Source: a virus. Taken from it: a stretch of DNA of 64,000 bases. A program made the position numbers and the translations under genes. Shown one piece after another: positions 7,927 to 64,000 of the stretch. Location of the stretch: the IMG/VR virus record IMGVR_UViG_3300042396_000723, positions 1 through 64,000 of that record; one strand, 5' to 3'. The notes below the pieces were generated by a model. It had not been told where the DNA came from. It saw nothing but the letters and a program-made list of their open reading frames with translations, and made no database searches. The stretch's first letter is position 1; each line of letters begins with the position of its first letter.

Positions 7927-7968
7927 TAGAGCCAATGCACAGGCTTGAATAGGTAGTGTTGAATGGTT

Positions 7969-8502
7969 TTAACTGGATTGTGATTGAGACCAATCGACAG
8001 CCGGCTTTATTGCTGCCATATAAAGATAAGGGAATAGTGTTGTCAGGTCTCCCCCTGTAATATTCTTTTTGAGGTGGGTTCTAAGCCATTTTATTATTGG
8101 TAAACCGCCCGATGTACCTAAAACGTAGTTAATAAAAACACTAAATTCACTTTTTAAATTTTCGTCCAATTGATTCATGTATTTGTCAATATCGGGGAGT
8201 AAAACATCCTGTCCGCAACTCAATACTTTAGATGCTAATTTAAAAGATTGAGCTATTTCTCCATTCTTGTTCTCTTGGAGTTGTAAATCCTTGCGTTGAG
8301 AATCAAAAAAACTTCCAGCTTTGATTCGATATCGAAGATAGTCACTCAGAATTTGATCGTCAAATATTGATGATTGCCGATTCTTTAGTATGTCAACTAG
8401 ATCCGTTTTTCCGTAGTTAGGATCTAACGCTTTCCGACGCTTTGCTTCTCCCATGTTTTTATCCCCAAAACTCTCAATAATTATACCGTATTTTGGACAC
8501 AA
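7969..8502 (-). CDS. hypothetical protein
   Basis: 177-aa ORF, ATG start. Confidence 0.5.
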   Translation of the reverse strand: MCPKYGIIIESFGDKNMGEAKRRKALDPNYGKTDLVDILKNRQSSIFDDQILSDYLRYRIKAGSFFDSQRKDLQLQENKNGEIAQSFKLASKVLSCGQDVLLPDIDKYMNQLDENLKSEFSVFINYVLGTSGGLPIIKWLRTHLKKNITGGDLTTLFPYLYMAAIKPAVDWSQSQSS

Positions 8503-23247: not shown

Positions 23248-24432
23248 GTGGACATCAAAGATATCGCTAAAGAAATCCGTGTAATTCTTGCCAACAGCTT
23301 CTACAAAACCAAATTCTCAGTTAAGATTAGTCGATTCAGTCAAGGATCATCAGCCGATATTACCTGGACTGATGGCCCCACAGAAAAACAGGTTAATGAA
23401 TTAGTTGGTTATTTTGGAGACACCCGATCTAAATTCATAAATACAACCCGCCTACATAGCGCGACACTGATTAACGGGGCGATCGCAAAATGGAAAGAGT
23501 TTCACCCTAGCCAAGCTCATTTAACCTTAAATTGTGTAGCATCTGGACTTGATCATTATGCAGCCTTTGATATTACCGAGTTTGGTTCCAACAACCCTGA
23601 TTTACCTCTCTATGAACAATCCATCTATGAGATTGTTCGCCATTCAATTCTTGATGAAACGGGTATCCGTGTTACTGGTGATTTAATCTCTAATGAAGAA
23701 TTGGTCAAACTCAATGAGTTAACCGAACCCGAAACCGAAACTCAAGAAACCATCACCCCTATTAAAATCAACTCACTCGCTGAACCGATTTATATTCAAG
23801 GAAATTACCCATCTTTAAACAAGTGCAATACAATTCAGCAATACATTCGGCAGGAAGACAATAATCGCACATTAACCCAGATAAGTAAGATAGTTGAACT
23901 TTCGTCAAAGGATTATCGTGAGTTCCTTCAAAACTTATTACAGCCCCACGAATGGCTCAATGGGGAAGGTGGGAGTGACAGTTTTTATAAGTCACCGCAC
24001 GGCGATAATTCAATAGCACTGATTAACGATAAAATTGAATTAAAAAAATGGTTAGCTGAACGCTACACAATTGCATTGTTAGTCACCAATGGATCTGAGT
24101 ACATTCTAGTTGACCCTCAAGGATATCGTTATGCCCGATACGTTGGCTTTGGTGTTGAGATGACACTTGACGATATTCTAAAGCTCTCGGAAGGGACAAC
24201 TACCGAACCTGAATTAGAAATAGCCGCGCCCGAACCCGAATCCAATCTAGTCCCATTCAAAAAACCAGTCCCTAGTTCAACACCCACGCCCGCACAAAAC
24301 CCCCAAAGTTCAGAGGATGTATTTTTTATCCAGACATACGAAGCATGGGTCAAGAAGCTGATGACAAAAGGGGAACTCAATAAGATTAAGAGCTTTGATG
24401 ATTGGTATGCGATCGCATCTCAAGTCCTTTAA
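23248..24432 (+). CDS. hypothetical protein
   Basis: 394-aa ORF, GTG start; Pro/Glu-rich C-terminal linker. Confidence 0.55.
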   Translation: MDIKDIAKEIRVILANSFYKTKFSVKISRFSQGSSADITWTDGPTEKQVNELVGYFGDTRSKFINTTRLHSATLINGAIAKWKEFHPSQAHLTLNCVASGLDHYAAFDITEFGSNNPDLPLYEQSIYEIVRHSILDETGIRVTGDLISNEELVKLNELTEPETETQETITPIKINSLAEPIYIQGNYPSLNKCNTIQQYIRQEDNNRTLTQISKIVELSSKDYREFLQNLLQPHEWLNGEGGSDSFYKSPHGDNSIALINDKIELKKWLAERYTIALLVTNGSEYILVDPQGYRYARYVGFGVEMTLDDILKLSEGTTTEPELEIAAPEPESNLVPFKKPVPSSTPTPAQNPQSSEDVFFIQTYEAWVKKLMTKGELNKIKSFDDWYAIASQVL

Positions 24433-33554: not shown

Positions 33555-33884
33555 TTAAAATTCTTGATTGTTGTCTATGGTTTTCTTGAACTCTGAACCA
33601 ACGGGAGCTAAGTTTTCTCGCCAGCTTAACCATCGGGTTTGTTGGTTTAGTTTGGCGGCGTTATAGTCTTCTAGTGTGATGTTCCAATCCTCAACAGGAG
33701 CAAACTCTAAACCAAGATCAAGAATGGTTTTGACAGCCCCTTCACGGGGGTATTTGGCTTTAGGGTTTGTCGTCCGGTGATAGAGTGTCATCAAAATAAA
33801 GTCTTTGTTTTTGGGGATGGGATTGGGTTCTGGGATTAACAGGATTTGACTGTAGACTGATTCGACTACTTCTGGATATTGCAT
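33555..33884 (-). CDS. hypothetical protein
   Basis: 109-aa ORF. Confidence 0.45.
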   Translation of the reverse strand: MQYPEVVESVYSQILLIPEPNPIPKNKDFILMTLYHRTTNPKAKYPREGAVKTILDLGLEFAPVEDWNITLEDYNAAKLNQQTRWLSWRENLAPVGSEFKKTIDNNQEF

Positions 33885-33891
33885 GAGGTTA

Positions 33892-34659
33892 TTAAGCTCT
33901 TGACGGTATCTTGTTAGTGTTGTCAGATGGAACTATTGAGGTAATACTTGAATCCCCATAATTATTCCACTGAACTATATTTGTCGCCTGCTTCCAGAGT
34001 TGTTGCACTCGGACTTTGTGAGGTAAAAATTCTTCGCTACAAAACTTTCCGAAGTAATCTATATCCCCATCATAACAATCAGTAATTAAATCCCTGGGAT
34101 ATTCAAAATCATAAATCCCGTAAATATTGTTAAAGTTTGCATCGGAATGTTTACCAGATCCCTCCCACAAACCAAATTGACCCCGAAACCACCCTCGACT
34201 TATATCTTCTCTCTTTTGGAATTGTTTACGTCTTTGTATCTCGTATTCGTAACCGTCAATCTCGCTACAGTCTTCCTGTTCATCAGGAGCGTAAAGCATC
34301 CCTATTGCTGTTTCCGAGTCAGGATCATAATGTGATGATATCCCGTTATCAAGCAAAGAAATCCCAACTAAAAGAATAAGCCCTTTGCAATTACAGTTTT
34401 CTATATTCTCCTTAATCTTCCGAACAGTTGCATCGTAATCATGGAACGGATAAACGGGTTTAACCTCAACAAATATCAATTCTTGTCTCCCTACTATCAC
34501 AAAGTCAGGTATCCATCCATCAAAATCGCAAGGTTCATATTCCCATTTCCAATTAAGTAAATCAAAGAAAGCCGCCCACTTAGCTTCTAATCTTGACCGG
34601 AATTGAATCCCATTATATCGAGTGGGTTTGTTTTTGATGGTGTAGTCAAATCCTTTCAT
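33892..34659 (-). CDS. PD-(D/E)xK-type nuclease-like protein
   Basis: FRSRLEAKWAAFFD...WIPDFVIV...ELIFVEVKP fits a PD...EVK active-site arrangement. Confidence 0.4.
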   Translation of the reverse strand: MKGFDYTIKNKPTRYNGIQFRSRLEAKWAAFFDLLNWKWEYEPCDFDGWIPDFVIVGRQELIFVEVKPVYPFHDYDATVRKIKENIENCNCKGLILLVGISLLDNGISSHYDPDSETAIGMLYAPDEQEDCSEIDGYEYEIQRRKQFQKREDISRGWFRGQFGLWEGSGKHSDANFNNIYGIYDFEYPRDLITDCYDGDIDYFGKFCSEEFLPHKVRVQQLWKQATNIVQWNNYGDSSITSIVPSDNTNKIPSRA

Positions 34660-34695
34660 GTTTTCCTCTTATTTGCTAATGTTTGCAATTCAAAA

Positions 34696-35316
34696 TTACC
34701 AACTCGGATTACCGCCATTAACGGCATCCGTCATGTATTTAGTTCTACGATGCCAACCCGACTTAAACACGGTTTGAGAAGGTCTACTGGTATAAATTGA
34801 GGTGTAATAACTATCTTGAGACTTGAGATAGTTTAACGCCTGTTCCTGCGGTGTTGACCCTGAGATATCCCACTTTTTACCACTATTAACATAACTATTC
34901 ATAATAGCTAAATTAAGCGGTTTCTGGGCTTTATCTGCACCTGAAGCTATCCAGTAGTCGGTGTGATATATCTTTATTGCTTGGGGTAAAGTTATTGAGG
35001 AAACGTTTAACCCGTGCCGTTTGGCTACACTTTCAATAATACCATACTTGGTTTTCCCACCGCCATCGGCAGGGTGATCCGACCAACCTCCTTCTACCTT
35101 CAAAATGTGACTTATAGCCCATGCAAAACCCTCGTCATTTATACCAGCTTGACTAACAGCTTTCTTAATCTCTTCAGGGGCTTGTGCTTTGGAAATATCA
35201 CCGGAAACATTACCCGATGGATTAGCACCCGTTACTGATTGAATTGCGGGGGATTGTAATAAATTGATAAGTGTAAACCCCGTTACCCCTAACATCATTA
35301 AGTTATTGAAAATCAT
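34696..35316 (-). CDS. GH108-family lysozyme with N-terminal membrane/signal segment
   Basis: ILKVEGGWSDHPADGGGKTKYGI matches the GH108 catalytic motif; hydrophobic N-terminus. Confidence 0.6.
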   Translation of the reverse strand: MIFNNLMMLGVTGFTLINLLQSPAIQSVTGANPSGNVSGDISKAQAPEEIKKAVSQAGINDEGFAWAISHILKVEGGWSDHPADGGGKTKYGIIESVAKRHGLNVSSITLPQAIKIYHTDYWIASGADKAQKPLNLAIMNSYVNSGKKWDISGSTPQEQALNYLKSQDSYYTSIYTSRPSQTVFKSGWHRRTKYMTDAVNGGNPSW

Positions 35317-35909
35317 TTTTTCGGCTCCATTATTGGGATTACTTTTTTAGGGTCAATATATTTCCCGTTGAGTTTTATTCCTAAGTGCAGGTGATTTCCG
35401 GTTGATGTTCCCGTAGTACCAACTAGAGCTATGGGAGTACCTGCTTTGACCGACTGACCCTTTTGAGCTAAAACTTTCGAGGCGTGGCAGTATTTGGACA
35501 GGTAGCCACCTGAGTGATTGATCTCAACTGCATTGCCACAACCGCCCATGTCACCCGCAAAAGACACCTGACCATCGGCAACGGCTAAGATGTTTGCACC
35601 CCCCGGCGCTGCAAAATCAATCCCGTTGTGCATTTTTTGCCCTCCCGTTACAGGATGCTCTCTCATACCAAACCCAGAAGATATTGTGTAAGGGGTTGAA
35701 TGGGGATAGATAAACTTAGGGGCGTTTTTACCTAACGTAATTGTTTCTGATGTTGTTGTTGATTGGGATTGAGGAACTGAGGTAGAGGGTGATCCAAACT
35801 TAAAAATGCTAAAGCCCACAAGCAAAACAGAAACGAAACACCAGAACCAAACATCATCAAGCTGTTCCTCACAATCCCTTATCCTCTCCTCCAATTTCCG
35901 GTTCAACAT
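35313..35909 (-). CDS. M23 family peptidase (LytM-like) with N-terminal TM segment
   Basis: HNGIDFAAP...INHSGGYLSKYCH...GTTGTSTGNHLHLGI motifs. Confidence 0.75.
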   Translation of the reverse strand: MLNRKLEERIRDCEEQLDDVWFWCFVSVLLVGFSIFKFGSPSTSVPQSQSTTTSETITLGKNAPKFIYPHSTPYTISSGFGMREHPVTGGQKMHNGIDFAAPGGANILAVADGQVSFAGDMGGCGNAVEINHSGGYLSKYCHASKVLAQKGQSVKAGTPIALVGTTGTSTGNHLHLGIKLNGKYIDPKKVIPIMEPKK

Positions 35910-35913
35910 TGCC

Positions 35914-36264
35914 TTATTTTCCCCCCATATCTTGCTTGCCTATTTGTTCTGATTTATCGTTTTTGGGAACGTCAAGGTTGTAGCGCGATCGCAAGCCACC
36001 TAATTTAAACTCGCCACTAAATAGGTTTTTAGCTGTCTCTTTCTTTTCGGGTTTAGTGGAATCGGAAGATTTTTTATCATCGGTTTTGGGTTCTTCTTTA
36101 GGTTTTGCCCAGTCCTCCTTGGGTATCTGCCTAGTTATTTCTGGGATGGTTTTTACCGTTTCGGCTACACCCTTTTTAAACCACCAAGGGATTGACTGAT
36201 TCCAACAAAAGTAAATCAGAAATACCCAACCCAGAACAGATCCAAAATAGAATAAAACTCTCAT
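35914..36264 (-). CDS. membrane protein
   Basis: 116 aa; N-terminal TM helix, then lysine-rich tail. Confidence 0.45.
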   Translation of the reverse strand: MRVLFYFGSVLGWVFLIYFCWNQSIPWWFKKGVAETVKTIPEITRQIPKEDWAKPKEEPKTDDKKSSDSTKPEKKETAKNLFSGEFKLGGLRSRYNLDVPKNDKSEQIGKQDMGGK

Positions 36265-36500
36265 TATTTAACATCCTCCAGTGATTCAATTGGGGTAATG
36301 GTTGAATCGGAATCGTCACCTTGACCGGGGGGAAGTTGACGATTATTTGTGGCATTTATAGACCCGCCGAACCAATAGGTTAAAGTCCCTACACTTTTCT
36401 CGAATAATGTCTTGATAGCGGTTTCAACTGTCATCCCTCTGACTCCAAAAAAGACAAGTAAAGTTAGCGCAGAAACGAAAACAATTCTTGAGGGTTTCAT
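36264..36500 (-). CDS. small membrane protein
   Basis: 78 aa with N-terminal TM helix; start overlaps the upstream stop. Confidence 0.45.
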   Translation of the reverse strand: MKPSRIVFVSALTLLVFFGVRGMTVETAIKTLFEKSVGTLTYWFGGSINATNNRQLPPGQGDDSDSTITPIESLEDVK

Positions 36501-36512
36501 AAGTAAAGGCTC

Positions 36513-37949
36513 CTATTTATTAATTAAGACTTTGGACTGAGAGGACTGAGATAATTGAGACTCCCATGCGGGTTTGAGGTAATTCGTGTAACGCTTGTTA
36601 GTAGAACGCGGCTCTATTCCTAACTCGCTACAAATTTGTTTTAGGGGTGATGGAATCAAACCGTGGGAATATTTAAAAGCCCGAAGTTCAAGAGAAGATT
36701 TAAACAGGGCAGTATTAACCTGCTCCCACCAATCACTATCCGGGTCGGTTGATTTGGCACTGGCAAAGGTAACGTTAAATCCTGATAGGTCAGGAATTGA
36801 AACTACTCTTGATTGCCCTTTGATTGTGCAGATAGCGGGTCTTTTCCCTTCCTTGAGCAACCTTTCAGCTATCTCTATTAACCCCGTTTTCTCCCCTGCT
36901 AAATACCGTAACTGCGATTCAGGGATTGATGGGTAGCAGATTATTAATTGAGCTAAATTTTCCAGTGTTGCCAAAGTAAAACCACCCTCACCGACGGACG
37001 CGGATTGACCCACGGGGATTAACTTAATCTTGTAGCCTCTACCCTGCTTAATGATCTCAATTAGCTTATCGAGCCGGGAATTGGTTTTGTCTGACTTGTA
37101 TCGTTCCACGATACTGTCAAATTCTTCGCAGATTAGGCAAATCGGAGTCAGGTCAACTTGAATTTCTGATATCTTTTTGGCTCCGTTTTTGGCTCCGTCA
37201 ACACAAGCCTTAATCCGTTTATCTAATTGGGCGTGAACGTGATCAATTAGGCTATCAATCTCGTCATCGGGTTGCTTGATCCATTCGGTGTCCAACCCAA
37301 ACCAATTATTAAGATAACCGTCATTATCGGGCTTTCCATAGTTCGGGTCAGCAATAAACAGTTGACCATCGGGGTTATTCTCAAGCCATTGACTGATTAT
37401 CAATCCCAGGAGTTTAGATTTTCCCGACCCCGTGCCACCCGTTAGCCTTTGATGTGGCAACGATAGAAATTCGGATACCCAACCCGAATCATCTTTGATT
37501 GATTGAAACTTAGACTTGATTTCCGGTGGGATAGCGCGGATCAACAGTTGAGATGATTTGGCATAACCTTTTTCTCCAAAGTCCCCTAGACTATCCAAAG
37601 CCTGACCAACTCCCCAAACTGTCCAACTAACTGATTTAGCCAAGGTATCGGGGACGGTGCGGGGTAGATCCTCAAGTTTGACCATAGACTCATCCCCTAG
37701 TATCAACCCCGCTAAAGCACCAAGGCATCCCACGCCCGCTAAATATAGAAGGATTGAATTATTAACGGGTTTACGCTCAATTACCAAAACGCTACCCCAT
37801 TCTCCTTTCTGAGATTGGTGGGGTGAGATACCTTTTAAATCCTCAATCTGAACAGTCGCAGCGCTGAATAAACCAATGGCTGAAAATCCTAAACTTGCTG
37901 CAACGGCAACCCCCCAATTATCCTTAGTGAAGTTATTTGGTCTTGCCAT
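36513..37949 (-). CDS. membrane-anchored FtsK/SpoIIIE-like (or coupling-protein-like) P-loop ATPase
   Basis: Two N-terminal TM segments, Walker A LTGGTGSGKSKL, Walker B LICEEFD; start at the ATG preceded by AAGGAGG. Confidence 0.55.
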   Translation of the reverse strand: MARPNNFTKDNWGVAVAASLGFSAIGLFSAATVQIEDLKGISPHQSQKGEWGSVLVIERKPVNNSILLYLAGVGCLGALAGLILGDESMVKLEDLPRTVPDTLAKSVSWTVWGVGQALDSLGDFGEKGYAKSSQLLIRAIPPEIKSKFQSIKDDSGWVSEFLSLPHQRLTGGTGSGKSKLLGLIISQWLENNPDGQLFIADPNYGKPDNDGYLNNWFGLDTEWIKQPDDEIDSLIDHVHAQLDKRIKACVDGAKNGAKKISEIQVDLTPICLICEEFDSIVERYKSDKTNSRLDKLIEIIKQGRGYKIKLIPVGQSASVGEGGFTLATLENLAQLIICYPSIPESQLRYLAGEKTGLIEIAERLLKEGKRPAICTIKGQSRVVSIPDLSGFNVTFASAKSTDPDSDWWEQVNTALFKSSLELRAFKYSHGLIPSPLKQICSELGIEPRSTNKRYTNYLKPAWESQLSQSSQSKVLINK

Positions 37950-38739
37950 CTTTAGCCTCCTTTTCTGCCAATTGTTTAGCCTCAAGTTCTAATTGCTTTT
38001 GAAGGGCCTCAGTCCGCTTCTGCTGCTCGTAGGTTAAAGCTCTAAGTGTCATGGCAACCTCAGAGAACCGACGGACATCACTCGCCAAAACCGAGACATT
38101 AACAGAGGTAAACTTTAATTGAATTTGATCTGCCGATGTAGTTTCCCAATGGCGTTTTAGTGCCAAAAGATTTCCCCAAACCTCAAACAACAAATCAGCC
38201 GCTTGCTTCCGTTCTTTAGGTGAACCGTTAAATTCTCCCTCTAGCGTAGCTTTATCAAGTTTGTTAGCCAGAAAGTTGATTTTCTTAATCAGAAATAACT
38301 CAATAGAAATGGGTTTCTTTTCAATCTCAGAACGAGCTTGCAACAGGAATGTTTCTGCTACCGCTTCACTCAAGTTGTTAACTTGAAAACCTACCTCGTT
38401 TAATGACTTATCTAATAGCTCATTTCGTGCCATTTCTAAGTCAGGGGATGGTTGAAATTCTCCAGAATTATCATTAGCTTCGGTCGAGGTTTCCCCTGTT
38501 GGTTCTACCGTCATTTGCTGAACTTCGGCACTTTCAGCTACGGGAACGTTAGGAGCAAACTTCTTGATAATTCCTGATTTATTCCCGACTAAGGTAATAA
38601 AACTACAAACTGCAATAACTGTTAGTAAAACCGCTACTCGTTTTCGTGTTTTATTAGGCTTTCTAGGTTCCCTCTGAGTGGCTTCTGAATCCCCACTAAA
38701 AGCTGGTAAGTCATCACTAGGCTGTAAACTGTCTAACAT
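37933..38739 (-). CDS. membrane-anchored coiled-coil protein
   Basis: 268 aa; one TM helix (VAVLLTVIAVCSFITLV) then coiled coil. Confidence 0.5.
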   Translation of the reverse strand: MLDSLQPSDDLPAFSGDSEATQREPRKPNKTRKRVAVLLTVIAVCSFITLVGNKSGIIKKFAPNVPVAESAEVQQMTVEPTGETSTEANDNSGEFQPSPDLEMARNELLDKSLNEVGFQVNNLSEAVAETFLLQARSEIEKKPISIELFLIKKINFLANKLDKATLEGEFNGSPKERKQAADLLFEVWGNLLALKRHWETTSADQIQLKFTSVNVSVLASDVRRFSEVAMTLRALTYEQQKRTEALQKQLELEAKQLAEKEAKDGKTK

Positions 38740-38744
38740 CTATA

Positions 38745-39170
38745 TCAATCTCCCTGTGCATGGTGTGAGGTTTTGATTTTCTGGGCGTTGGTGTTTGGAG
38801 TGGTGTTTTCGGGCGAAAGTACCTTTCCATAGAGTTCAAGGGCTTCAAAGTATTCAGGACTCCCAGGCTGAAGGCAATTCAGGTGATTCTCGGTTGCCCT
38901 TTGGATCAGTTCACCCAACACAAGGTTAAAGTCTGGTTTTGTGTCTGATCTGTTGGGGCTTGTTTCCTTGTTTGATTGGGTGTTATTGCGGGTTGTGATA
39001 GCCAAGAGTGCAGTAGTTGTGGAACTAGCTATTAATCCGATAAAACCCCCGTATTGACCCATTCTAACCTCTGATATTTCCGGTTCTAATGTTAGGGATA
39101 ACAGGACTGAACTAAGACCACCAATCACAGTTCCAACCATGATCGCCTTAACGGGTTCTGGGATTTTCAT
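38745..39170 (-). CDS. membrane protein
   Basis: 141 aa with two hydrophobic helices. Confidence 0.45.
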   Translation of the reverse strand: MKIPEPVKAIMVGTVIGGLSSVLLSLTLEPEISEVRMGQYGGFIGLIASSTTTALLAITTRNNTQSNKETSPNRSDTKPDFNLVLGELIQRATENHLNCLQPGSPEYFEALELYGKVLSPENTTPNTNAQKIKTSHHAQGD

Positions 39171-39460
39171 ATTGATAGTTTTGGGATTGTTCCCTGATTC
39201 GACTAAAAACTACTTGATTGCTAAATATTAAAAACCCAATAAAGAATGCTGTTAAATAATAAATAGTATTCATTAGAAACAACCTCCCATTAAAAAGGGC
39301 ATTACGTTATGTGAGCAGTAAACTCCAAATAGATTAACCAAGTCGATAACGATTCCCACTTAAAACCCTCCCATTAATAATTCTAATTGTTGACTGATTT
39401 CCTTGGGTTGAGGGATTTTTAGGATAACTTCTATTCTCTCAACCCGTGTTTCTAGTTCGT

Positions 39461-39970
39461 TTATTCTCCGAAAAAACTTCTCACAGCTAACTGGGATTTT
39501 TTTGACTTTCCCACCGCTTCGTTAAGTTGCTGTTCTAAAGCCTCAATTGAGATTTCTTGATCAAAGTCTAAGAGGTTTCCTAACTCATCCCCGGACGCTT
39601 GATCAATTGCATTCTTGTACTCAGGAATCCCAACTAATAAAGCCTTGGCGGATTCAATTTCATCGTCTGCAATTTCATTTAAGAAAGCCAATTGTTTTGC
39701 TTTTTTAAATAGTTTAGCATCTTCCCGCCCGGAGTTTTGACCCGCAACAACAACGGCTTTAGTGTTAACAATCGCGTTATCCTTAGCTTTCTTTTGGGTC
39801 TTAACAACTGCATCATTGAGTTGATCTGTTGTACTCCCTTTGGTGATAGCTGATTTAGTCTGCTGTTTCGGCTGTTCCGCCTGGGTTTGGGGTTTCCGTG
39901 AGTTCTGATACAACTCGGTAAGTTCCGGTTGAGTGTTGTTGTCGGTAGCTTGTGATTCTTGATAGGACAT
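39461..39970 (-). CDS. hypothetical protein
   Basis: 169-aa ORF. Confidence 0.45.
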   Translation of the reverse strand: MSYQESQATDNNTQPELTELYQNSRKPQTQAEQPKQQTKSAITKGSTTDQLNDAVVKTQKKAKDNAIVNTKAVVVAGQNSGREDAKLFKKAKQLAFLNEIADDEIESAKALLVGIPEYKNAIDQASGDELGNLLDFDQEISIEALEQQLNEAVGKSKKSQLAVRSFFGE

Positions 39971-40328
39971 CGACTTTAAACTCCTTAAATAGTTGGGTTG
40001 TGTTTAGCATTAACATCTTCTGGAAAACTTCTATCTCGATAGATAAACCGTTGTTTAAACAGTGGTGATAGAGGCTTTGGAACTGATAGTAGGTATGGTG
40101 TGGGTATTTGGAACTAACAAAAATATGCAATAGGTACAAGATGTTTAATTCCGCCCAATCAACAGGTTTTCTTGTTATCCCCAAAACCCCTTTTCTGTCT
40201 GCGATTGTCTGGTGGGAAACCTTGAAAATCAACTGAATCTCTTTTGAGGAAAATGGTTCTAAAGCGTTTTCGTCTCTAAGATCTATTGTTTTCCTAATTC
40301 CCCCTTGCCTCGATCTAAAATCGCCCAT
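39855..40328 (-). CDS. hypothetical protein (start or extent uncertain)
   Basis: 157-aa ORF overlapping the downstream gene by about 116 nt in another frame. Confidence 0.3.
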   Translation of the reverse strand: MGDFRSRQGGIRKTIDLRDENALEPFSSKEIQLIFKVSHQTIADRKGVLGITRKPVDWAELNILYLLHIFVSSKYPHHTYYQFQSLYHHCLNNGLSIEIEVFQKMLMLNTTQLFKEFKVDVLSRITSYRQQHSTGTYRVVSELTETPNPGGTAETAD

Positions 40329-40451
40329 TCATGGCTTCCTATAGTCCTCCGTTCTGGGTTTACTCAGGCTTGATTTAACCTGATGTACCAATAGTAAACC
40401 CACCTCTAAGGGTGGGCATAGGGGAAAATACATCTGGGGTGGAATTTGCCA

Positions 40452-40655
40452 CTACTGATTATTCTTTTCCTGCCATTCCATAACATAAAGCGTGTGTTTG
40501 CAAAATCGTTTCAATACATCTCGGTCAACCCATAAGTCCACAAAGGTATTATCTTGATTAATCGTTGCAATACAGTATTGACCATTAAGGTTTTGCCCTA
40601 ATTTTATTTCCCCTTTTAGGTGATGGACTTCTTGAGAGTGTGAATAATTGTCCAT
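40452..40655 (-). CDS. hypothetical protein
   Basis: 67-aa ORF. Confidence 0.35.
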   Translation of the reverse strand: MDNYSHSQEVHHLKGEIKLGQNLNGQYCIATINQDNTFVDLWVDRDVLKRFCKHTLYVMEWQEKNNQ

Positions 40656-40852
40656 TATATTTTTCCCTCTGATTGTGCTAACAAACCTAAGTGGCGACGA
40701 AATTGAACGTATTGGGGTTTAGGGTCGTAGCCTTTGCGACGGTGATTTTTTACCGTGTCAGGGTCGGCTCCTGTTAACAATGAAATTTGGTTGATGGATT
40801 TTCCGGTAAGTAAACGAAATTCATCTACAGATAGTTCTTTTTGTGCAAACAT
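40655..40852 (-). CDS. hypothetical protein
   Basis: 65-aa ORF. Confidence 0.35.
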   Translation of the reverse strand: MFAQKELSVDEFRLLTGKSINQISLLTGADPDTVKNHRRKGYDPKPQYVQFRRHLGLLAQSEGKI

Positions 40853-40977
40853 TGTAATAGCCTCAACTGGGTTAAAGAATGGGTTGGGGTGGGGCTGATC
40901 GGCTGATATCCGGTCAGCCCCTTTCAGTATTTGTGTTAATGTTATGCTGATTATATGCTAAACGACATAAAAAAACA

Positions 40978-41229
40978 ATGGACAAAAGGTATAGAATTAC
41001 GATTAAGATCCCTGCGTGGCATAATAAGCGATTAAGGGAATGGGCAGCACTCAAGGGTGTAGCACCCACAACCTTGGCGGGTAACGTATTGCAAGCTCGA
41101 ATAGAAGCAAACGACGAACAAATTGTGGCGATGTTAAAGTCTCGGTCTGAGGATGAAGGATTAACTATTGAGGAATTTATTAAAAAGATTGTCAATGATT
41201 CAGATGATCAAGAAAAGCCCACTAGGTAG
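40978..41229 (+). CDS. ribbon-helix-helix (CopG-like) protein
   Basis: ITIKIPAWHNKRLREWAALKGVAPTTLAGNVLQARIE fits an RHH beta-alpha-alpha pattern. Confidence 0.5.
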   Translation: MDKRYRITIKIPAWHNKRLREWAALKGVAPTTLAGNVLQARIEANDEQIVAMLKSRSEDEGLTIEEFIKKIVNDSDDQEKPTR

Positions 41230-41281
41230 AGTGAGCTTCTTTGGAGTTATCGGGAATAAGGGCAGGAGTTGTAAGATTGTT

Positions 41282-41716
41282 TTAAATAAGACTGTTCAAA
41301 CTATTTACAATTTCTTCCTTATTGATTTCATCATCTACAAATCTTTTTGCATTGATTGAATCAATTAAAAATTGAAAAGCTCTTGATTCAGTAAGATACA
41401 TTGGGATATTTAAAACGTTGTCAAGTTCACCGTTAAATATTTTATTTGCTATTATCACGGCATCCTCAACATTTAGAACGCCATCATGCACCAACAATTC
41501 CACAATGCCAATTAATCCCATGTAGAATCCAGCTTTTAATAAATCCGAATAATCGGGTTTTACTATTTTGGCTTTTTCGTTAATTTCAACCGTAGATTTA
41601 TGAGCTAAACTGTATTCTAAACAGTATTTGAAATTATCTGGGTTCAATTGTGAGAGTAAAATAACGCCTTTTTCACTCACAAACTTTGAGCCAGAATCTA
41701 ATTCTTTAATGTCCAT
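41282..41716 (-). CDS. hypothetical protein
   Basis: 144-aa ORF. Confidence 0.45.
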   Translation of the reverse strand: MDIKELDSGSKFVSEKGVILLSQLNPDNFKYCLEYSLAHKSTVEINEKAKIVKPDYSDLLKAGFYMGLIGIVELLVHDGVLNVEDAVIIANKIFNGELDNVLNIPMYLTESRAFQFLIDSINAKRFVDDEINKEEIVNSLNSLI

Positions 41717-46915: not shown

Positions 46916-47248
46916 TCATCGCTTCTGACTAAAGGACTTGATTGTCACGGTAGGGAACAGGTCTCGGATATCAGCACCGAGGGTCTTTAAAACAAAATCC
47001 AATCTTTCACGACTAACAGATGCAACTTTTCCCTGTTCCCATTTGAGGATTGTGTCAAAGGAAACCGTTGGCTCCGTAAGGGTTGCAAGTTTTTTTTGCG
47101 ATATGTTTTTGGCATTTCTTACATCTTGCAATCTAGTCCCAACGTCCTTATCCCAAGCAATTTGGACAATACAGTTATATGGAATCATAATCTCCTCTTC
47201 TTGATCTTTCGGTATAGTATTGACATTACTACCTTTTTGTTCTAACAT
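46916..47248 (-). CDS. HTH (XRE/Cro-CI-type) transcriptional regulator
   Basis: VGTRLQDVRNAKNISQKKLATLT...ILKWEQGK is a classic XRE HTH; start uncertain (track 47401, in-frame ATGs at 47248 and 47188). Confidence 0.5.
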   Translation of the reverse strand: MLEQKGSNVNTIPKDQEEEIMIPYNCIVQIAWDKDVGTRLQDVRNAKNISQKKLATLTEPTVSFDTILKWEQGKVASVSRERLDFVLKTLGADIRDLFPTVTIKSFSQKR

Positions 47249-47465
47249 AGCAATATTGTAGGAATCTGGCAAGACCAAATCACCAGATTCCTGCACCCCC
47301 TGAAACAACAAGCCTTGGATCGGCTTTGTAAATCGTAAGGGGAAAAACCCGAAAAGGAAAATGCCTATGGGATGAAACTGAACGGGCAGATTGTAGAACA
47401 CCTAAATACCAGAGGGAAGATTCAAGCATTCCCTTTGGTTTCCTAAATAATGAAATGAAAAAAAT

Positions 47466-60344: not shown

Positions 60345-60791
60345 TCAGGTTTGATTGCCGTCGTTAGTGTTTGAATTACTTGCATTGGTAGATACCCCTT
60401 TTAGCTTCTTTATTATTGCAATAGCTTTTTGATGTTCTGAAGCTAAGTGTTGATATTTTTCTTGAATGTTTACTAATTGTTCAGAAAAATTAGAGTTAGT
60501 TTTCTCCTGTAGCGCGGCTATCTTTTCCCTGAGTTCGTTGTTTTCAACCTCAAGCCTGTTTAAATCATTCTCCCTATAATTAGCCTCCCTCTGAAGGCTT
60601 TTAATTTCACTTTGTAATTCAACTATAACCTTGATGTTTTTGGTATCAAAAATTCTATTGATAGCAATACCAATTACACTACTACCACCCAACAGAACGG
60701 TAATCAAACCAAATACTGATTGAATCGTTTGGTCTGTAGTAGCTGTTGTTGTATTTGATTGGAGAATAACATGAAAAAAAGACATCAACAT
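60345..60791 (-). CDS. membrane-anchored coiled-coil protein
   Basis: One TM helix then coiled coil. Confidence 0.45.
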   Translation of the reverse strand: MLMSFFHVILQSNTTTATTDQTIQSVFGLITVLLGGSSVIGIAINRIFDTKNIKVIVELQSEIKSLQREANYRENDLNRLEVENNELREKIAALQEKTNSNFSEQLVNIQEKYQHLASEHQKAIAIIKKLKGVSTNASNSNTNDGNQT

Positions 60792-60808
60792 TTTGATTAC
60801 GAGGGTAA

Positions 60809-61339
60809 TTAACTTTTGTAGGCATATTTAATTGATAACATAATCTCTGCAAGCATTGAAGAAAACACCCCGCAAGCTAAGGAAGATATACTGCCATTTT
60901 GCTTGATTCCTACAGACAAAAAGAAAACTACTATAAACAATACTGAAAGGATGTGGCAGATATTTAAAAGAATATAGCAAGCAGTCCAAACAGAGGAGCT
61001 AATTTCACTACTAAACTCTTTCTTGAACTTGTAGACGAAACACCAACAAATTATCCCGCCAATCCCCACCCCAAGGGTGATAGCGTTTAAAAAATCAATA
61101 CTCTCATTTATCCATCTAATAGATGTTTCTAATGGGGTAAAAATCATTCCAAACAATCCGACCAGAATCATCACCAGGAAATGATGATTAAAAAATAATG
61201 CCTGAACTATATATTTAATTCTAAAAACAGGGCGTGGCATATTGCAATATTTACCCCCTCTTTCTAAAATCGTAAGACTCACCCTCTTTTTTTCGCTCTT
61301 TGAGTTTTTTGCTACGTTCATAGTGATGCCCCAATACAA
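60809..61339 (-). CDS. multi-pass membrane protein
   Basis: 176 aa with about 4 hydrophobic helices; start uncertain. Confidence 0.4.
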   Translation of the reverse strand: MYWGITMNVAKNSKSEKKRVSLTILERGGKYCNMPRPVFRIKYIVQALFFNHHFLVMILVGLFGMIFTPLETSIRWINESIDFLNAITLGVGIGGIICWCFVYKFKKEFSSEISSSVWTACYILLNICHILSVLFIVVFFLSVGIKQNGSISSLACGVFSSMLAEIMLSIKYAYKS

Positions 61340-61610
61340 GGAAAAGCGATAAAAAACTTATAATAATTTGAATTATTAAAGTTGATATTTTCATATTATC
61401 AAACTTGTCATAACCTATCTTGTTAAAGCTGTCAAACAATAACATCAATCCGTTATTTATCAACAGAGTAGATGACAAGTATTGATTCAACTTTCGGTTA
61501 TCAAATATCAAGGAAAATCCATTAATAATAGAAATCAGTCCGGCAAAGAAAAGCAAGAAGGCATAACCGGACTGGTTGAAAGGGAGCGAAAAAATTGATA
61601 TTGATATCAT
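61251..61610 (-). CDS. membrane protein
   Basis: 119 aa with 3 hydrophobic helices; overlaps the downstream ORF. Confidence 0.35.
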   Translation of the reverse strand: MISISIFSLPFNQSGYAFLLFFAGLISIINGFSLIFDNRKLNQYLSSTLLINNGLMLLFDSFNKIGYDKFDNMKISTLIIQIIISFLSLFLVLGHHYERSKKLKERKKEGESYDFRKRG

Positions 61611-61934: not shown

Positions 61935-64000
61935 TTATGCCGTGTAAATTATTGTTATTTTAACTGGTTTTGATAAAATATTTTCGCTATTTGTTGGATG
62001 ATTTATTATTTGTATGTCCGCCACTGACACGGACACGGAAAAATGAAGACCAACAAACTGTGTATCATATCCAGACAATACAAACGCGTTTGCGCTGAAT
62101 TCCACTAATACTGTGACGGATACAATTTTTGAAACCGTAACTCCATGAGCTATTAATGCAACCCCCCCTTCAGTTGCAGCCGTAGTCCCCGTCAAAACTT
62201 TAATCTTAATCCCTGGATGATTAGCGTCCCCACCTAAAGAACTGAAACCACCAACATATTGATTTCCTCCAATCCCCTGTCCCCCAGGAATTACACTAGC
62301 TCCCGTGGTGGGAGATGTTGAAGGTGTTGTGGAATTAGTTGATATCACACCTCTTAGGTAGGTATTGGTGATACTTGAATCACCAATTGTTACGGTGTTT
62401 GAGCCGTTACCGGTGGCGTTAAAACAAAATACGTTTTCGTTGGTTGCGTTCTGGGTTCCTTTTGTATTTGCGCCAAAAAAACAAGAGTTATTTGAGATAG
62501 TTAGACCTGTAACGCCGTCAGAAGTGAAGCGTCCTGCACCAACTCCAAAACCTGCCAAATTACTCCCTGTTATATTGCTGAAAAGCGCACCAACTCCAGA
62601 GGCAGTTAAATTATTCCCTGTAGTGTTATTTTCTAAAGCCCCAACGCCAAAAGCAGACGAATTATTCCCTGTAGTATTAGAACGAAGCGCATTAAGTCCA
62701 GCGGCAGTTAAACTACTCCCTGTAATATTGGACAAAAGCGCACTAACTCCAACTGCCGTTGAATAATTCCCTGTGGTGTTATTTTGTAAAGCCCCAGTTC
62801 CAAAACCTGCCAGGCCAATACCTGTGGTATTGGCCTGGAGCACACTAACTCCTGTTATTGTATTTGTGTCTAAACTCCCCCCTCCTCTCCCAATAGGAAT
62901 CAAATTATAAGAATTGGCACTAACAGTACCAGCAAAAATAGCACCCGTAACCCCTAAACTAGCGACCCTTAAAGCCCCTGTAGTTGTTGATGTTGATTGG
63001 GTTGATAGGGGAATATGAAATCTCGAACTATCAACAGAGAAATAAGTAGTCGCACCATCTCCCCAGGATTGAATCCCTGTCGATATATCTCTCTCCCACC
63101 ACGTTCTAGTGGTACTCAGGGGAATGTTAAAGGAAGCATCAACAGCTATCCCGTTATGAAAACTGGTTGTATTCCAGTCTACACCATTAGCTTTCCGACA
63201 AAGCCAAGTTCTTTCTGTTATTATGTTTCCTGATGCCCCTGTTTTTGAAGATAAAACTTGAAAATCTCCAGATGTACTACCGAGAGGAGACCCTTGATAT
63301 AGACTAACTCCTGCACCTAAAGAACCTATTATGTTTCCGTTTACTGCTAGATTCCCCGTGATAGTCCCACCCGCCAATGAAAGATAGGAATTAATATCAA
63401 TTGAATAAGTCCCATCCCCTGTTTTCTTTAGGAATCCTGGGGTGTCGGATAGCGATTGAATAGCAATTAATTCGTTGCCGATACTGTTAGTTGAAACCGC
63501 AGTTACTTGACCCTTAGCATTGACAGTAATAGCAGGAATTGAACTAGCACTACCGAAAGAACCAGCATTACTATTGACCGTTGCCAGTGTTATCGCACTT
63601 GTAACATTGGCTGAACCATCAAAAGATACTGAATAACTAGCATCCCCCGTTGTTGTAATTGTCCGTGGCGTGGTTAGTTTTAAAGCCTCTCCCGCAGTAG
63701 CAGAACTCGATATCTCAACATAAACAGAACCCGACCATCGGTAAACTTTATTAGTCGTTTCATCAACGTAAATCTTTCCAGTTTCACCCGTACCTGGGAA
63801 CCCGGCAAGGTTTGTATAACTCAGGACATCATCAACATAAGACGGTAAAAGCCCAGATGAAATTGTGCCAGACGCGGCGTTTAAACTTGTTAAAACTTCG
63901 TTACCAGTAGACGCGATCGCACCAACATCAGACGCGGTTAAACTAATCTGAGCTTTAGGAACCTTGGTATTTGAATCCAAGGTAGCCACACCATTAGCCA
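61935..64000 (-). CDS. tail fibre-like protein, N-terminus outside window
   Basis: Frame stays open upstream of the GTG at 63989 to the window edge; Thr/Ser/Gly-rich with about six 17-19-aa N-x-TG-x(4)-A-x-G-x-(G)AL repeats; KIYVDETTNKVYRWSGSVYVEI fibre-like segment. Confidence 0.55.
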   Translation of the reverse strand, partial: ANGVATLDSNTKVPKAQISLTASDVGAIASTGNEVLTSLNAASGTISSGLLPSYVDDVLSYTNLAGFPGTGETGKIYVDETTNKVYRWSGSVYVEISSSATAGEALKLTTPRTITTTGDASYSVSFDGSANVTSAITLATVNSNAGSFGSASSIPAITVNAKGQVTAVSTNSIGNELIAIQSLSDTPGFLKKTGDGTYSIDINSYLSLAGGTITGNLAVNGNIIGSLGAGVSLYQGSPLGSTSGDFQVLSSKTGASGNIITERTWLCRKANGVDWNTTSFHNGIAVDASFNIPLSTTRTWWERDISTGIQSWGDGATTYFSVDSSRFHIPLSTQSTSTTTGALRVASLGVTGAIFAGTVSANSYNLIPIGRGGGSLDTNTITGVSVLQANTTGIGLAGFGTGALQNNTTGNYSTAVGVSALLSNITGSSLTAAGLNALRSNTTGNNSSAFGVGALENNTTGNNLTASGVGALFSNITGSNLAGFGVGAGRFTSDGVTGLTISNNSCFFGANTKGTQNATNENVFCFNATGNGSNTVTIGDSSITNTYLRGVISTNSTTPSTSPTTGASVIPGGQGIGGNQYVGGFSSLGGDANHPGIKIKVLTGTTAATEGGVALIAHGVTVSKIVSVTVLVEFSANAFVLSGYDTQFVGLHFSVSVSVADIQIINHPTNSENILSKPVKITIIYTA

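Follow-up and report, generated by a model that had tools for sequence, protein, structure and literature searches.

Between positions 34,696 and 39,170 of the 64,000-nucleotide stretch analysed here (the window; positions 1 to 64,000 of IMG/VR virus record IMGVR_UViG_3300042396_000723) lie seven consecutive, tightly packed open reading frames (ORFs) on the minus strand. They encode two cell-wall hydrolases, a membrane-anchored ATPase related to FtsK and four further membrane proteins, and this block is the subject of the present analysis. The region is ~76% identical at the nucleotide level to ORF122L-ORF130L of PaV-LD, a phage of the Caudoviricetes whose host is the filamentous cyanobacterium Planktothrix. 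All seven ORFs are present at the following coordinates, listed with the features just upstream (aa, amino acids; TM, transmembrane helix; HTH, helix-turn-helix).

34696-35316, minus strand: GH108 muramidase, 206 aa; PaV-LD ORF122L
35313-35909, minus strand: M23 zinc endopeptidase, 198 aa; PaV-LD ORF123L
35914-36264, minus strand: p116, small protein with an N-terminal TM and a Lys/Glu-rich tail; PaV-LD ORF124L (published as 'holin')
36264-36500, minus strand: p78, small protein with an N-terminal TM; PaV-LD ORF125L
36513-37949, minus strand: membrane-anchored P-loop ATPase of the FtsK/TcpA type, 478 aa; PaV-LD ORF127L
37933-38739, minus strand: p268, single TM, conserved '-1' partner of the ATPase; PaV-LD ORF128L
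38745-39170, minus strand: p141, small membrane protein, conserved '-2' partner of the ATPase; PaV-LD ORF129L
39171-39460, no strand: 290-bp intergenic region upstream of the block, with repeats; possible promoter or control region
39461-40328, minus strand: p169 (39461-39970) and the HTH-like p157 (39855-40328); possible upstream operon members by position alone

Hydropathy analysis identified an N-terminal hydrophobic segment in all seven block proteins, and two in the ATPase. Roughly 16 non-overlapping ORFs in the window have predicted TM helices; that seven of them stand consecutively in the block is not due to chance. In comparison with the PaV-LD orthologues, all block genes are under purifying selection, with ratios of nonsynonymous to synonymous substitution rates (dN/dS) of 0.05 to 0.47 (dS was saturated for p116); the lowest value belongs to the ATPase (0.046), and those of GH108, M23 and p78 are 0.094, 0.115 and 0.163. 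A preliminary description of the locus had linked wall hydrolases to a membrane-anchored FtsK-like ATPase, and its ORFs, domains, motifs and TM segments are all borne out. PaV-LD has an extra 102-aa gene (ORF126L; 7811-8119 of PaV-LD locus L001) between its homologues of the ATPase and p78 genes; this gene is missing in the window, where the gap is 12 bp.

The same set of genes is found outside phages. A tblastn search of 72,556 plasmids returned matches on two plasmids of Oscillatoria acuminata PCC 6304, both of which carry parM, a small ORF, a protein with two TMs, a protein of ~360 aa with one TM, the ATPase, two small N-terminally anchored proteins, and a fused M23-GH108 hydrolase. Plasmid pOSCIL6304.02 encodes a MOBP relaxase, ParA, ParM and a primase-helicase and has no annotated phage structural genes, while pOSCIL6304.01 is typed as non-mobilizable, meaning that no relaxase was recognised. 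The order that recurs across loci (numbered with the prefix L) is a two-TM protein, a one-TM protein of 250 to 400 aa, the ATPase, one or two small TM proteins, and an M23 peptidase with or without a muramidase. This order is kept on a Leptolyngbya contig (L009) and on metagenome contigs L007, L008, L011, L013/14, L015, L017 and L019, the last with an M23-GH108 fusion and a DUF2227 gene. In a contig from an Elainellaceae metagenome-assembled genome (MAG; L010) the module follows just after a ParM-like gene, and in a chromosomal island on a 218-kb contig of Kastovskya adunca (L021) the M23 gene is followed by an SLT transglycosylase replacing GH108 and then by DUF2227. A locus search with the family alignment yielded five genome loci. 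Clustering by BLAST joins four families (p141-like, p268-like, ATPase and hydrolases) in phage and non-phage loci alike. In 10 other loci the ATPase is followed by an M23 gene, in L007, L008 and L009 by a BLAST-linked gene of the hydrolase family, and a wall hydrolase is present in every locus with enough downstream sequence. Since the operon is also carried by ordinary cyanobacterial plasmids, it looks like DNA-transfer machinery and not only like the lysis cassette as which two of its genes have been published.

The ParM-type gene lies directly upstream of the module on both Oscillatoria plasmids (L002 5921-6931, L023 4940-5950) and in the Elainellaceae contig (L010 7208-8245). The MAGs into which contigs L005, L006, L007 and L008 are binned bear the labels Terrimicrobiaceae, Obscuribacterales and Actinomycetota; one of the four, L005, shares 98% identity with the window, and all are probably mis-binned contigs of phages or mobile elements. 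The identifiable hosts are all filamentous (five of five: Planktothrix, Oscillatoria, Leptolyngbya, Elainellaceae and Kastovskya).

The ATPase contains a Walker A motif (GGTGSGKS, residues 171-178) and a Walker B motif (LICEEFD, ~272-278), and residues G176, K177 and E276 are invariant in 47 relatives at 19% to 38% identity (two closer ones at 71% and 80%). Its start is most likely ATG 37949, giving 478 aa, and not TTG 37985, all homologues being 474 to 480 aa long. Standard family models hardly recognise it. A single-sequence Pfam search gave only the DUF87 P-loop (18 bits against a cut-off of 23.2), the gathering threshold of FtsK_SpoIIIE (PF01580) was not reached (no match of the window ATPase down to E 0.1), and a search of NCBIfam returned nothing; weak PF01580 matches occur in 7 of the 47 relatives (best E 2.3e-5). 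Among phage protein families it matches phrog_1358, 'FtsK/SpoIIIE-like' (E 3e-10). A membrane-bound ATPase of this kind in a tailed phage had been called unusual, which it is, although the existence of phrog_1358 means that it is not unprecedented. Earlier homology searches with alignments returned only close phage relatives, and the family was reached by an exhaustive representative search: this profile search gave 969 matches, 54 of them at E<1e-30 and nearly all 400 to 510 aa long with one or two N-terminal TM helices. One close homologue carries the NCBI name 'type IV secretory system conjugative DNA transfer family protein'. The gene also contains an exact 12-nt tandem duplication at 37174-37197 (TTTTTGGCTCCG twice), translated as GAKNGAKK; the family alignment is poorly conserved at this point, between the two Walker motifs.

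An AlphaFold model built with 12 close sequences (predicted local distance difference test, pLDDT, 65) was discarded, and a run with 47 sequences (pLDDT 88.6) was used. The model comprises TM1 (9-31), a beta-hairpin (34-61), TM2 (65-84), a long stalk helix, a disordered linker, a RecA-like motor (142-400) and a conserved, family-specific C-terminal domain of four helices (403-477). Hydropathy places the two TM helices at 13-31 and 66-84, in agreement with the two-helix topology first proposed, and in the modelled arrangement the beta-hairpin must face the periplasm. The best match in structural comparison is TcpA, the coupling protein of pCW3 conjugation (17.9), followed by E. coli FtsK (16.4), EccC (15.3), HerA (14.7), VirB4 (14.3) and the classical coupling protein TrwB (11.3). 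The top Foldseek match is FtsK bound to double-stranded DNA; a search of BFVD gave mostly unnamed matches. Comparison by hhalign gave a probability of 98% (E 2e-13) for Orf21 of Tn916 and of 95.7% (E 9e-9) for E. coli FtsK, and the 'GRGY...GQS' stretch of the ATPase aligns with the 'RAAG...TQR' signature of FtsK. Outside cyanobacteria, its nearest plasmid relatives are Tn916-type Orf21 genes that adjoin a MobT relaxase and the VirB4-like Orf16. The RecA-like core, both Walker motifs and a conserved Arg/Gln after strand 4 are those of the FtsK-HerA superfamily, and two N-terminal TM helices joined to a TcpA-homologous motor are the features of TcpA/Orf21-type proteins. The ATPase thus represents a new family, anchored in the membrane, within the FtsK/TcpA branch of this superfamily, a placement among the FtsK, TcpA, HerA and VirD4-like groups that the preliminary description had left to be settled. 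Its suggestion of a likeness to the core of conjugative DNA-transfer systems is upheld by the structural match to TcpA, the hhalign match to Orf21 and the presence of the block on true plasmids.

The fold matches also include the packaging ATPase B204 of STIV2 and A32-like ATPases, and PaV-LD has been described as tail-less (PMC10343443), as might be expected if the block formed a packaging or delivery vertex like that of membrane-containing viruses (P9 with P20, P22 and lytic enzymes in PRD1). This explanation is hardly credible, since PaV-LD has annotated genes for a terminase large subunit, a portal, a head protease, an HK97-type major head protein and a tape measure, the module occurs on plasmids without annotated capsid genes, and packaging ATPases score below TcpA and FtsK. 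PaV-LD encodes a terminase, a portal and a capsid of its own, and the ATPase is therefore not the motor that packages its genome.

Searches of PDB sequences with the family profile found EccC (E 2e-11), HerA and FtsK (E 7e-8), and PDB chain 4nh0 was matched in three stretches. These matches could point to a protein-export motor of the EssC/EccC (type VII-like) kind, which might, for instance, stand in for a holin by moving the hydrolases (or other proteins) across the membrane at the expense of ATP. EccC and EssC usually have three FtsK-like ATPase domains, whereas the block ATPase has a single one in its 478 aa; no FHA domain and no WXG100-like substrate lie nearby. The hydrolases moreover carry N-terminal signal anchors of their own, so a dedicated exporter is not obviously needed, and we consider this explanation improbable.

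The likeness to HerA bears on a further explanation, that a resident element expresses the block for superinfection exclusion or anti-phage defence. HerA-type ATPases occur in several defence systems, the block is found on mobile elements, and the ATPase has a weak PADLOC match to mad8 (E 1.9e-7) and to HerA. However, the PADLOC scan found no defence system, none of the six partner proteins had a match, no nuclease, Sir2 or other effector of HerA systems accompanies the ATPase, and an active pair of peptidoglycan-cutting enzymes corresponds to no known defence architecture. A defensive role is therefore even less probable than protein export. DNA entry and superinfection exclusion, both put forward initially, found no support; export of DNA or its transfer between cells, as for plasmids, is what the context suggests.

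Both hydrolases retain intact catalytic motifs. The GH108 protein matches Glyco_hydro_108 (PF05838; E 3.4e-18) and the endolysin family phrog_315 (E 5.9e-40), contains the catalytic EGGW motif, and has a weakly hydrophobic N-terminal segment at residues 2-20 that resembles a signal or signal-anchor-release sequence in its hydropathy. The M23 protein matches Peptidase_M23 (PF01551; E 4.2e-32) as well as several 'endolysin' PHROGs, has an N-terminal TM at 20-38 by hydropathy, and retains the zinc-binding and catalytic motifs HNGID (HxxxD) and HLH (HxH). Across loci the two activities are encoded separately, fused, or with one swapped (fusions or swaps at L002 10813-11943, L019 4691-5833 and L021 12243-14289, often followed by a DUF2227 membrane protein). 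This is the pattern expected of a functionally coupled peptidase and glycosidase, and it argues for such a pair. The phage GH108 shares 42% identity (E 9e-30) with the GH108 part of the fusion that is linked to the module in L019, compared with at most 36% with the closest phage lysin outside PaV-LD among 50,697 phage records; hence this hydrolase has travelled with the module.

A rival account of the block is a plain phage lysis cassette, with GH108 as endolysin, M23 as endopeptidase and p116 as holin, and with the ATPase and the other proteins as lysis regulators or unrelated neighbours. The endolysin PHROG matches of both hydrolases agree with it, as do published experiments on the PaV-LD orthologues (83% and 72% aa identity to the window M23 and p116). 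Meng et al. (2022) over-expressed ORF123 and ORF124 in E. coli and Synechocystis, naming them endopeptidase and holin, and observed growth inhibition and membrane damage that depended on the TM segments and were synergistic (PMC9096620). These proteins are able to damage envelopes, at least on over-expression. That work treated two genes in isolation and in heterologous hosts, leaving aside the ATPase, the other four membrane proteins and the homologues on plasmids (PMC9096620). Since PaV-LD has no annotated endolysin apart from these, host lysis in the phage is most likely a further task of both hydrolases and perhaps of p116.

As an account of the whole block, however, a lysis cassette is unlikely. 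The ATPase, its two upstream partners and the hydrolases are kept together at 20% to 30% identity on plasmids without annotated phage structural genes, and plasmids do not lyse their host as a step of their life cycle; the gene set is not restricted to phages, nor is the block linked to late genes. The block sits inside a leftward gene string of ~20 kb that begins with a repressor-like gene (46916-47401), transcribed divergently from the replication genes, and that runs on into a RuvC resolvase and genes without assigned function. The string does not lead into structural genes and includes genes of nucleotide metabolism; the neighbours of the block are early or DNA-metabolism genes, not late genes. 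Muralytic enzymes of the endolysin type are present, but no spanins or spanin-like lipoprotein were found. Protein p116 has no match to a holin family in Pfam or PHROG, and it has a positional analogue in the plasmid operons; its orthologue behaves like a holin on over-expression (PMC9096620), and toxicity seen when a membrane protein is over-expressed is a weak argument for its being a holin. An alternative, possibly the true holin region, is a cluster of three small membrane proteins at 60345-61610 on the minus strand (148 aa with one TM, 176 aa with four, 119 aa with two; no functional PHROG match), directly downstream of a tail-fibre-like virion structural gene (61935-63989; phrog_3018). 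An unusual lysis route had been among the initial suggestions: part of the block probably does act in lysis, but the block as a whole looks like more than a lysis cassette. Nor does the locus combine a soluble packaging or replication ATPase with a canonical holin-spanin cassette, the ATPase being membrane-anchored and the PaV-LD terminase a separate gene.

The partner proteins differ in how firmly they are tied to the plasmid versions. Protein p268 has a basic N-terminal tail, a TM at 35-53 by hydropathy, and a predicted periplasmic helical domain that ends in a coiled coil. It has BLAST links (E up to 0.01) to the gene just upstream of the ATPase in L007, L008, L011, L013, L017 and L021, and all-against-all clustering unites the '-1' proteins of 10 loci, including an Oscillatoria plasmid. 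No match to p268 was found in Pfam, PHROG or PDB, and the profile of its family gave nothing meaningful against PDB. The cluster of p141 comprises nine loci, again including an Oscillatoria plasmid, with the alignment motif TLE..V...RM; p141 itself has a TM at 10-28 by hydropathy, and a second TM is predicted in its homologues. Protein p116 (TM 3-21) corresponds in position and topology to the '+2' small TM protein of the plasmid loci, and a hidden Markov model (HMM) of these '+2' proteins ranks it first of the 309 window ORFs, at an E of only 0.086. The '+1' HMM from the plasmids showed no significant sequence link to p78 (TM 6-24).

Taken together, the block may be a TcpA/FtsK-type DNA-translocation operon without VirB4, common to plasmids and phage and working in the cell envelope in a manner akin to conjugation; we judge the chances of this interpretation to be about even. 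What the analysis shows is how the motor folds and to which proteins it is related, that the proteins are anchored in the membrane, that the catalytic motifs are intact and the genes under purifying selection, and that the gene set occurs on plasmids, on a chromosomal island and in PaV-LD-type phages. In such an apparatus, the ATPase would be the motor, presumably as a ring of six subunits at the inner side of the cytoplasmic membrane, and p141 (two TM helices), p268 (single TM and periplasmic helical domain), p78 and p116 would provide the scaffold or channel. The membrane-tethered M23 and GH108 enzymes would cut the peptidoglycan locally, a job done in Gram-positive conjugation by CwlT, TcpG and PrgK. 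The module would then move the DNA of its element out of the cell and into a neighbouring cell, both DNA as the substrate and the direction of transport being what we infer from the gene content.

The nearest known counterparts are the conjugation systems of Firmicutes in which the FtsK-like coupling proteins TcpA (pCW3), Orf21 (Tn916) and ConQ (ICEBs1) are accompanied by the bifunctional hydrolases TcpG, Orf14 and CwlT. In contrast to those systems, the block has no nearby VirB4 (TcpF/Orf16), VirB6 (TcpH/Orf15) or MOBT relaxase, its accessory proteins are unrelated in sequence, and its ATPase has a distinct conserved C-terminal domain; its hosts are diderm cyanobacteria, and its carriers include a tailed phage. 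VirB4 is the only ubiquitous protein of type IV secretion systems (T4SS; PMC3548315), and with no VirB4 homologue found the block would not be a T4SS. No second Walker A protein of the VirB4 kind was found in the window, VirB4 is not annotated on the two Oscillatoria plasmids, and none was found in 10 other loci. The VirB4-family ATPase, mating-pore genes and (usually) MOBT relaxase that are co-located in the mating-pair formation class MPF-FA are likewise not found together here. With FtsK and SpoIIIE the block ATPase shares the motor fold, both Walker motifs, the equivalent of the 'RAAG...TQR' motif and a membrane anchor, but it is much shorter, has no detectable gamma domain, and is encoded on mobile elements.

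A second comparison is with TraB and the Spd proteins of Streptomyces, which mediate conjugation of double-stranded DNA and intramycelial (hypha-to-hypha) spread. As in that system, small membrane proteins come after a membrane-associated FtsK-like pump that would need neither VirB4 nor a relaxase; the hosts grow as multicellular filaments, and the element would have only a cross-wall to pass. As far as gene content can suggest, a relaxase-free pump of the TraB type would fit the missing VirB4 and the missing relaxase of pOSCIL6304.01. Because VirB4 is absent, and a relaxase absent in places, the module would by analogy operate more like TraB with Spd than like a T4SS, although its nearest homologue is nonetheless TcpA/Orf21. 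It differs from TraB in that it has no sequence match to Streptomyces plasmids, no clt-like 8-bp repeat array and no demonstrable C-terminal winged HTH, and in having dedicated M23 and GH108 hydrolases, of a kind not known from TraB systems.

Several observations weigh against a DNA-transfer function. No member of the ATPase family is known to move DNA, and profile searches match the protein-secreting EccC/EssC ATPases as strongly as DNA pumps. The C-terminal domain (403-477) has no match in PDB or Pfam and no detectable similarity to FtsK-gamma or an HTH family, which lends no support to a DNA-binding HTH there. No VirB4-type ATPase, multi-spanning VirB6-like protein or relaxase was found in the window or adjoining the module in any locus, and no oriT- or clt-like repeat array was detected in 33800-41300. 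The likeness of p78 and p116 to the small TM proteins of the plasmids is confined to position and topology (best E 0.086). The over-expression phenotypes of ORF123 and ORF124, and the lack of a second annotated endolysin in PaV-LD, fit lysis. In addition, some non-phage loci have phage-like neighbours (Baseplate_J and Collar genes at L010 15512-21440, a Mu-type transposase at L021 18280-21431), and the module may also lie in or beside other prophages.

A more specific form of DNA transfer is also conceivable, in which the block is a minimal, relaxase-independent and VirB4-free conduit through which the phage or plasmid genome passes from cell to cell along a cyanobacterial filament without virions. 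In this conduit the ATPase would pump DNA through the membrane of the donor cell, and the two tethered hydrolases, M23 and GH108, would open the septal peptidoglycan. The cells of a cyanobacterial filament are reported to share their periplasm and outer membrane, so that only a 'Gram-positive-like' barrier would have to be crossed. The filamentous nature of all five identifiable hosts and the position of the plasmid module downstream of parM fit this proposal, as does the biology of PaV-LD, whose lysis is slow and incomplete and whose relatives are constantly associated with their hosts in blooms (PMC10343443). Slow lysis and constant association are compatible with a carried, plasmid-like state. 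PaV-LD further encodes an integrase, a ParB-like protein, a replication initiator, DnaB, a repressor and anti-repressor, and two toxin-antitoxin pairs, a set of genes that hints at a temperate or plasmid-like lifestyle. We nevertheless regard the filament conduit as a tentative and rather doubtful proposal.

The surroundings of the block offer several further observations. The intergenic region at 39171-39460 contains a 19-nt direct repeat (39278 and 39362) and an 11-nt inverted repeat (39405-39445), and PaV-LD has a comparable gap; scans of 33800-41300 for repeats, promoters and terminators gave counts at chance level. A small TM ORF (39148-39282) overlaps the start of p141. Upstream of the module, most other loci encode a soluble protein of ~190 aa and a small HTH-like protein, and HMMs built from the plasmid '-3' and '-4' proteins had no significant match to p169 or p157 (E 0.49). 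Downstream, a protein of 255 aa adjoins GH108 (p255, 33892-34659; phrog_21138), with an N-terminal motif that resembles a PD-(D/E)xK nuclease by eye; it was rejected as a member of the module, as it is not conserved with it in other loci. Further away, a 394-aa protein at 23248-24432 contains LPD29 ('large polyvalent protein-associated domain 29'; E 6.4e-13) and may be equivalent to PaV-LD ORF098R, annotated as 'ParB-like'. Domains of the LPD type are typical of conjugative elements and phages.

Genes of the block are already annotated in PaV-LD ('FtsK/SpoIIIE protein', 'peptidase', 'endolysin') and two have been studied. Beyond ORF123/ORF124, the literature searched contains nothing earlier on the operon as a whole, on its homologues in plasmids or on an affinity to TcpA. 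The FtsK-type conjugation motors have been thought confined to two phyla, with TcpA homologues reported only in Firmicutes and TraB only in Actinobacteria (PMC3548315), and cyanobacterial conjugation has so far been ascribed only to the VirB4-based class MPF-C. Here, a conserved operon of a TcpA-like pump and hydrolases, without VirB4, is found on cyanobacterial plasmids, islands and a bloom-relevant tailed phage. If the DNA-translocation reading is true, the operon would represent a new and very small DNA-transfer apparatus in a new phylum, and the published 'holin/endopeptidase' pair would have to be re-read as parts of a larger machine. It would also blur the boundary between phage and plasmid for PaV-LD-type elements, which carry ParB, integrase and toxin-antitoxin genes. 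Whether mobile DNA passes between the cells of cyanobacterial filaments without virions thereby becomes a testable question. Should the filament conduit exist, it would be a cyanobacterial counterpart of TraB/Spd spreading in Streptomyces, and it would give a tailed phage a route of spread independent of its virions.

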